A DNA stretch of 64,000 nucleotides from Chiloscyllium plagiosum. Taxonomy: Eukaryota. Every line of letters begins with the position of its first letter. Position 1 is the stretch's first letter. Made by a program: the position numbers and the translations under genes. Of this stretch, positions 61,593-62,520 are shown piece after piece. Where the stretch lies: positions 1,159,212-1,223,211 of the forward strand of contig NC_057759.1 of the NCBI RefSeq assembly GCF_004010195.1, written 5' to 3'. Below the pieces are notes generated by a model. The model saw only the letters and a program-made list of their open reading frames with translations. It had not been told where the DNA came from and did not search any database.

Positions 61593-62316
61593 GTTTCATC
61601 CCCATCAAACCAAGTGTCCCCAGCGCCCACCGGCAAGCAAAAAAAAAGTTTCCCTCTGAGTCCGATTTTACTTTATTTATTTTTAATTTCCAAATCTCCG
61701 CACGGTTATTTTCCGGATGCAGAGCTTGGAAAATGCACCGAAATAAAACTAGAACAGCTGCAGAAGTGGCAGAGGGAATGTGGAGCTTTTAGCGATCTAT
61801 GATCCTGTCCAGCAAGGAGGGCAACTTGACAATATTCTCGAACGATCGTGTTCACTATTAATGCGCTTACTCGGGAGGACGTAATCTCATGTTGTACCAG
61901 TATATCGGGGTGCTGTTGAAATGTGAAGTAAATGATTAGTTGCAGAGTGCAGGGTTTGGCGCCTTTTGTTTTGGGGTCCGCTTATGTTTCACGTTTGGAA
62001 AATCCCAATTCAAGATCAGAAATGGGCAGGTTCTAGTAGGCTAGGGAATGAGGTCGAGAGTTAATATAAAGGGCCCACTTTTCATGTAGAAGTAAATTAT
62101 CTCGAGTATTCGTGCATTCTTCTGTGTTTAAACTGCCTACTTTTCGGTACATATTGGCGGGCTTTTCAAATTGTAAAAAAAGCGGTTGATGATTTGGCGC
62201 CGGTACTTTCCGCCTTCCTCCCCGTGCCCTCTCCGGATTGGGGAATGAGGCAGATATCTGATTGGGAATTGAAACAACATTAGGCGGGGCTGGACAATGG
62301 GACCAATCAGAAACGA

Positions 62317-62520
62317 ATCCTGGAGCTGGCCGGCAACGCGGCCCGGGACAACAAGAAGACCCGCATCATCCCCAGGCACCTGCAGCTGGCCGTGCGCAAC
62401 GACGAGGAGCTCAACAAGCTGCTGGGAGGGGTGACCATCGCTCAGGGCGGGGTGCTGCCTAATATCCAGGCCGTGCTGCTGCCCAAGAAAACCGCCGCTG
62501 CTGGATCTGCTAAAAAGTGA
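62317..62520 (+). pseudogene. H2A: 5'-deleted histone H2A (codons 63-129 only)
   Basis: [24 protein letters not shown]...GSAKK* joined directly to promoter CCAATCAGAAAcg; TATA, 5'UTR and first 62 codons (equivalent to 9484..9760) missing. Confidence 0.93.

Follow-up and report, generated by a model that had tools for sequence, protein, structure and literature searches.

A 37-bp H2A promoter segment inverted between opposite-facing CCAAT boxes at six loci of the Chiloscyllium plagiosum genome

Two H2A promoters with a CCAAT-bounded cassette

The 64-kb window (the whole stretch of Chiloscyllium plagiosum DNA analysed here, 64,000 nucleotides) contains two H2B-H2A units that are inverted relative to each other, and each H2A promoter carries one cassette bounded by CCAAT boxes. 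In this cassette two CCAAT boxes, which face in opposite directions and form a 9-bp inverted repeat, enclose a spacer of 37 bp; the cassette occupies positions 9763-9817 in copy 1 and 62257-62311 in copy 2. Its arms, TCTGATTGG and CCAATCAGA, lie at 9763-9771 and 9809-9817 in copy 1, and at 62257-62265 and 62303-62311 in copy 2. The features of the two units are as follows; orientations A and B are those of copy 1 and copy 2, respectively.

9279..9668, - strand: H2A copy 1, intact open reading frame, 129 amino acids
9725..9735, - strand: TATA-like box of H2A copy 1, its role judged by position
9763..9771, - strand: copy 1 TATA-proximal arm, without the two 5' purines in orientation A
9772..9808, - strand: copy 1 inner 37 bp, flipped minority orientation (A), from the census and a contig of run X2
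9809..9817, - strand: copy 1 distal arm, full RRCCAATSR match in orientation A
10788..11165, - strand: H2B open reading frame of unit 1, intact
60881..61258, + strand: H2B open reading frame of unit 2, intact, in tandem upstream of H2A copy 2
62245..62283, + strand: upstream ATG and 12-codon frame to TAG, a by-product; ATG context in 51 of 60 promoters
62257..62265, + strand: left arm of copy 2; its distal CCAAT box reads on the minus strand
62266..62302, + strand: copy 2 inner 37 bp, majority orientation (B, as in 53 of 60 promoters), with a GC-box-like core
62303..62311, + strand: right arm of copy 2; its proximal CCAAT box matches RRCCAATSR in full in orientation B
62312..62316, + strand: junction of a deletion of about 277 bp, which took from H2A copy 2 the TATA-like box, the 5' UTR, the start codon and roughly codons 1-61
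62316..62520, + strand: what remains of H2A copy 2 as a pseudogene, from about codon 62 to the stop
62551..62566, + strand: H2A copy 2, histone 3' stem-loop, its motif located by script

Read on the + strand, the spacers of copies 1 and 2 are identical at 34 of 37 positions; read in the sense of their genes, they agree at 3 of 37. One spacer is thus reversed relative to its own gene, and chance is ruled out. This bears out the initial annotation, which had described a 37-bp segment inverted between paralogues and bounded by 9-bp CCAAT repeats. By eye, the spacer (9772-9808, 62266-62302) resembles decayed duplicates of CCAAT words on each side, and a common spacer variant, G7, makes a third CCAAT core.

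Census of orientation in the genome

We gathered 65 H2A promoter places by pattern and DNA searches of the shark's own genome, together with stretches fetched by place. Orientation could be scored in 60 promoters, while five places (L068, L071, L072, L075 and L076) were unscorable, the spacer being deleted, shortened or in an N gap. Fifty-three promoters are of the copy-2 type (B) and seven of the copy-1 type (A). Since the orientation of copy 2 is found in 53 of 60 promoters, copy 1, the intact gene, is the flipped one. The seven A promoters represent six loci, two of them being a near-identical tandem pair, out of about 59 H2A promoter loci, a number that may be an overcount because unplaced contigs may be alleles of placed loci. 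On the main scaffold alone the flipped share is 5 of 35. Two genome searches aimed at the A junctions yielded no further A copies, and the one metagenome scan for the cassette returned a single match, L078, with no relation outside the 19-base pattern. Both the majority and the position on the trees suggest, within this one species, that orientation B is ancestral.

A full open reading frame is kept at three of the six flipped loci (copy 1, L033 and L036) and at 22 of the 48 assessable unflipped loci, so that we found no link between flip and pseudogenisation (P = 1.0). The arms are perfect over at least 9 bp in five of the six flipped loci, and decayed in L034.

Over all scored H2A promoters, those of the 8-Mb scaffold G000:C50 among them, the picture is that of a histone cluster evolving by birth and death, with pronounced mosaicism. 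A full open reading frame survives at just 25 of 54 assessable loci, and many copies have large promoter or coding deletions. Tandem promoter duplications occur on this scaffold at L008 (near 1979.9 kb, period about 139 bp) and at L034 (near 3272.5 kb, about 614 bp). L071 and L075 (near 5878.9 and 6251.8 kb) are promoter variants with a spacer of merely 7 bp or so, and in L071 the inverted repeat is perfect across 12 bp, a tight potential hairpin. In a class of four loci (L069, L059, L070 and L076) the spacer lacks 9 bp at its right end, a deletion that fits slippage between two CCAAT-like words.

Copy 2 is a deletion pseudogene

In copy 2 the deletion starts just past the right arm and ends near codon 61. 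Many unflipped copies have also lost large pieces, with scattered breakpoints that, judged by eye, are spread across promoter, UTR and coding region. We rejected the cassette as a deletion hot spot because of this dispersal; copy 2 is an ordinary deletion pseudogene.

The initial annotation had favoured a one-off flip in copy 2, possibly linked to the adjacent deletion, with an upstream ATG that might be meaningful. The deletion does begin 2-4 bases from the right arm. However, copy 2 has the majority orientation, so that the census already contradicts this scenario, and deletions with varied breakpoints affect many unflipped copies. The scenario can practically be dismissed. The reading of the ATG itself was accurate: the ATG at 62245 is followed by 12 codons and a TAG in a frame shared with the H2A remnant, and with the spacer turned back the frame would read on as was stated. 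It is in frame with the remnant because of the deletion. Fifty-one of the 60 promoters have an ATG in the same context, 5' of the TATA-like box, which makes it a by-product.

Predicted effect on the NF-Y boxes

The NF-Y site is asymmetric, RRCCAATSR, according to PMC11802806, and in PMC1802594 the factor recognises its core in either orientation. A full consensus is present at the proximal box, on the sense strand, in 42 of 52 B promoters and in none of the seven A promoters; at the distal box, on the antisense strand, it is present in all seven A promoters and in one of 52 B promoters. The flip thus exchanges the better and the poorer contexts: the TATA-proximal box loses the full NF-Y consensus and the distal box gains it. 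The view that the flip keeps both CCAAT boxes and their spacing therefore holds for the cores and the spacing, but not for the context, as the two 5' purines travel with the inner segment.

Support from reads

The contigs of four of the 24 listed runs were compared with the copy-1 promoter. An 88-nt contig of run X2 matches positions 9742-9829 with no difference and spans both copy-1 junctions. In run X4, which belongs to another study, a 128-nt contig crosses the cassette in orientation A with L048-type alleles, and also has a 53-bp upstream skip resembling that of L048. Two of the six flipped loci are thus matched to read contigs, copy 1 (X2) and an L048-like locus (X4). X2 and X4 are different samples from different studies, either of which could be the source sample of the assembly.

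Could the inversion be an assembly artefact, or a library chimera formed at the hairpin? The assembly is gapped and based on short reads, the family is multicopy, and one X1 contig of low depth (2.9) has an off-register strand joint. However, the X2 contig is identical to copy 1 over both junctions, and the X4 contig spans the cassette in flipped orientation. An artefact is extremely unlikely, and we regard the inversion as confirmed.

No contig among the four runs carries the private alleles of copy 1 in orientation B, although contigs lose rare variants; the private form is in orientation A in the single contig that resolves it. Run X1 has no contig with the copy 1 allele at 9783 despite the presence of the upstream flank, a contig gap that is not proof of absence. 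Nor were both orientations seen at one locus, in the assembly or in the contigs of these four runs, which drop rare variants. RNA run X21, sampled at about 2%, gave 40 reads on the promoter stretch, three of them with the unflipped joint, too few to judge expression. About 25 RNA reads of the same run have poly(T)-type loose ends in the H2B-H2A spacer (window positions 10095-10145); these may reflect internal priming or reads from paralogues.

One origin or several?

Collecting the H2A promoters of this genome, scoring their orientation and mapping it onto trees, as had been proposed with the initial annotation, yielded six flipped loci that lie scattered. On a tree of the upstream flank (450 bases, 54 of 60 rows), the flipped loci need six changes out of a possible six, and a single clade is rejected (AU test, P = 1.8e-53). 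On the downstream tree (620 bases, 45 of 60 rows, four A loci), four changes out of four are needed and a single clade is again rejected (P = 7.6e-7). For the proximal tree we normalised the spacer and used 250 columns of 51 of the 60 promoters (omitting eight promoters without a flank and one tandem duplicate); here the test does not reject a single clade (P = 0.108).

Ordinary variants of the spacer are nearly as scattered on these trees, with six changes for the eight carriers of a 3-bp deletion and seven for the seven carriers of T23. Since such ordinary variants are nearly as dispersed, the scatter of the flips alone is no proof of recurrence. Exchange of short tracts appears widespread among the paralogues and might move a flipped cassette as well: the best upstream match and the best downstream match differ for each copy. 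These observations, with the non-significant proximal test, speak for a single old flip followed by short gene-conversion tracts over the 55-bp cassette, in which case the alleles shared between orientations would have arisen by parallel mutation or by conversion between opposite cassettes.

The alleles inside the spacer are harder to reconcile with that history. Ten of the 12 inner substitutions of the flipped loci, plus the 3-bp deletion, are also found in unflipped copies. Chance would produce such sharing with a probability of 2e-4 to 4e-3, which rises to 0.006-0.05 when mutation is confined to variable sites, the most conservative model tried; recurrent point mutation at hot sites would inflate this statistic. 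The flipped cassettes are no nearer to each other (inner distance 0.163) than to unflipped ones (0.128); compared with random sets of six unflipped loci, they are not mutually closer in the inner segment or in the near flanks. No derived allele is common to all six. The spacer of L035 is identical to those of five unflipped copies. L033 has a two-change spacer haplotype, including the 3-bp deletion, that is also present in seven unflipped copies, and a junction of its own, where a single base change has perfected the arm to 12 bp.

Some alleles also extend across the junction. The upstream allele of L033 is present in four of the seven unflipped carriers of its 3-bp deletion, and L048 shares one upstream allele and three inner alleles with the unflipped L067; both examples were picked post hoc. 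A permutation test detected no significant linkage across the junction (P = 0.27), though its power was limited, as 0.05 was reached in only 27% of control sets; this result too is compatible with one flip and later conversion. So is the sharing of T23 and A28 by three flipped loci (T23 in 3 of 6 flipped against 5 of 53 unflipped, P = 0.03, uncorrected), and these three loci may have one origin.

A single flip would nevertheless demand that G7, the 3-bp deletion, T23 and A28 were gained in parallel, or that conversion worked with inverted homology of no more than 55 bp, when PMC8755829 gives 50-250 bp as the lower limit for eukaryotic homologous recombination. The distinct junction of L033 also argues against it. 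We therefore consider one flip spread by conversion rather unlikely, and several independent template-switch flips between conserved CCAAT arms probable, with an estimated two or three origins at least and six at most. The alternative of recurrence raised in the initial annotation is accordingly favoured, though not proven, as regards evolutionary time (six loci, unrelated backgrounds); as regards a regulated invertible cassette, it is unsupported.

Mechanism and rate of inversion

The breakpoints of the flips are located within the arms, in line with the earlier proposal of a micro-inversion between CCAAT inverted repeats, most likely by template switching. Over 51 rows, variation amounts to 0.4-1.2% in the CCAAT cores and to 5.6% in the spacer; it is likewise low, 1.3%, in the adjacent 20 bp on the upstream side, so that the boxes are not alone in being conserved. 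Most of the cassettes folded are predicted to form a hairpin that the arms close. Outside the cassette, no other micro-inversion was detected in 60,943 flank bases, in a search that recovered 81 of 90 spike-ins of 37 bp and 60 of 91 of 20 bp (66-90%). Two reverse-type matches, considered as loop inversions in histone 3' stem-loops, read as neighbouring genes on the other strand and were rejected.

We infer that the spacer was turned by two template switches within the arms during replication. Selection for NF-Y binding would preserve both arms, and a polymerase would change template in one arm and return in the other, so that the spacer would be copied backwards. Since a flip would leave both CCAAT cores in place, even intact genes would tolerate it. 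The cassettes would then be reshuffled by duplication and by short gene conversion. Microhomology-mediated break repair, the alternative put forward in PMC8755829, is possible, and sequence alone does not separate it from replication switching; the same paper accepts the template-switch model for longer perfect repeats.

Some three to six flips on a tree of 3.0-4.4 substitutions per site would amount to about one flip per substitution per site, a rough figure as mosaicism inflates the tree. The genome-wide micro-inversion rate between human and chimpanzee is given in PMC8755829 as five orders below substitutions per nucleotide, but that rate is not conditioned on such a repeat and is not directly comparable with ours. 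A bolder hypothesis is that paired opposite NF-Y boxes constitute a self-maintaining inversion hot spot, whose spacer would flip about as often as one base substitutes, would be found segregating or somatically inverted, and would retune the output of an H2A copy with each flip. We hold this to be unlikely.

A probable mutational hot spot, with no sign of a switch

Phase-variation switches in bacteria, such as hin and fim, have a promoter segment between inverted repeats that occurs in two orientations. The H2A cassette resembles them in this respect. Its arms and spacer are very short, however, the core promoter lies outside the segment, and no recombinase was found among the features examined.

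Is the H2A promoter a regulated or somatically active invertible element, flipped by a dedicated enzyme in the same style? Its breakpoints are defined and repeated, intact genes are found in either state (a full open reading frame at 3 of 6 flipped and at 22 of 48 unflipped loci), and a full NF-Y consensus is relocated by the flip. Against this, the assembly has no near-identical pair of loci with opposite orientation, the single contig that resolves the private form of copy 1 has it in orientation A, and the features examined in the two units include no recombinase motif. PMC8755829 moreover argues that so small a loop could not undergo recombinase synapsis. Such a regulated switch is very unlikely. 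We found no sign of it, and the inversion rather appears as a mutational hot spot over evolutionary time.

Comparison with known micro-inversions

Micro-inversions in animal nuclear genomes are usually regarded as rare and nearly free of homoplasy. The H2A inversion is a member of the class of micro-inversions flanked by inverted repeats. The closest parallels are those of great apes, where PMC8755829 and PMC7954356 describe short spacers cleanly reversed exactly between short inverted repeats, like our cassette. Template switching or microhomology-mediated repair is proposed for them, and imperfect arms are sometimes perfected. This last trait of template switching (PMC7954356) is seen here at one of the six flipped loci, where a near-perfect repeat was made perfect over 12 bp (L033). 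The great-ape cases measure 17-33 bp and are single events between species, whereas the H2A cassette has 37 bp and is flipped at six paralogous loci; unlike theirs, its arms are transcription-factor boxes.

Chloroplast hairpins provide an example of recurrence. There, conserved functional palindromes allow recurrent, homoplastic inversion at one site (PMC3123225), and the cassette may work in a similar way. These stem-loops act in organelle transcripts, while the H2A repeat consists of CCAAT boxes acting at the DNA level in a vertebrate nuclear promoter. PMC3123225 also mentions avian hot spots without a tie to stem-loops, and few homoplastic cases in animals.

Loop inversions in rRNA and microRNA hairpins, as described in PMC8794818 and PMC7954356, also leave the stem unchanged while the loop is inverted. 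In multicopy RNA genes these patterns are phylogenetically inconsistent because the copies recombine. Those loops belong to structured RNA and mostly measure 4 nt, the largest 7-8 nt, as opposed to 37 bp of promoter DNA in the H2A cassette. The setting of the latter, a vertebrate nuclear promoter with transcription-factor boxes as arms, differs from these known cases. We found no literature on this inversion, or on recurrent promoter flips bounded by CCAAT boxes, in open-licence PMC and bioRxiv papers.

If recurrence holds, selection on two transcription-factor boxes would keep alive the substrate for the same inversion. The H2A cassettes offer a natural series for studying template-switch rates and the effects of NF-Y site position and orientation in histone promoters. 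On present evidence, which is that of sequence, the flip is a point of mutation biology and no new regulatory system.

Minor observations

Two further features of the window deserve mention. The H2B proteins of unit 1 (11082-10788 region) and unit 2 (61041-61090) differ at conserved-looking positions, and either H2B may be drifting towards a pseudogene. A 2.57-kb direct duplicate with 99.2% identity (22129-24699 and 26698-29267) flanks an N gap and is possibly an assembly duplication.
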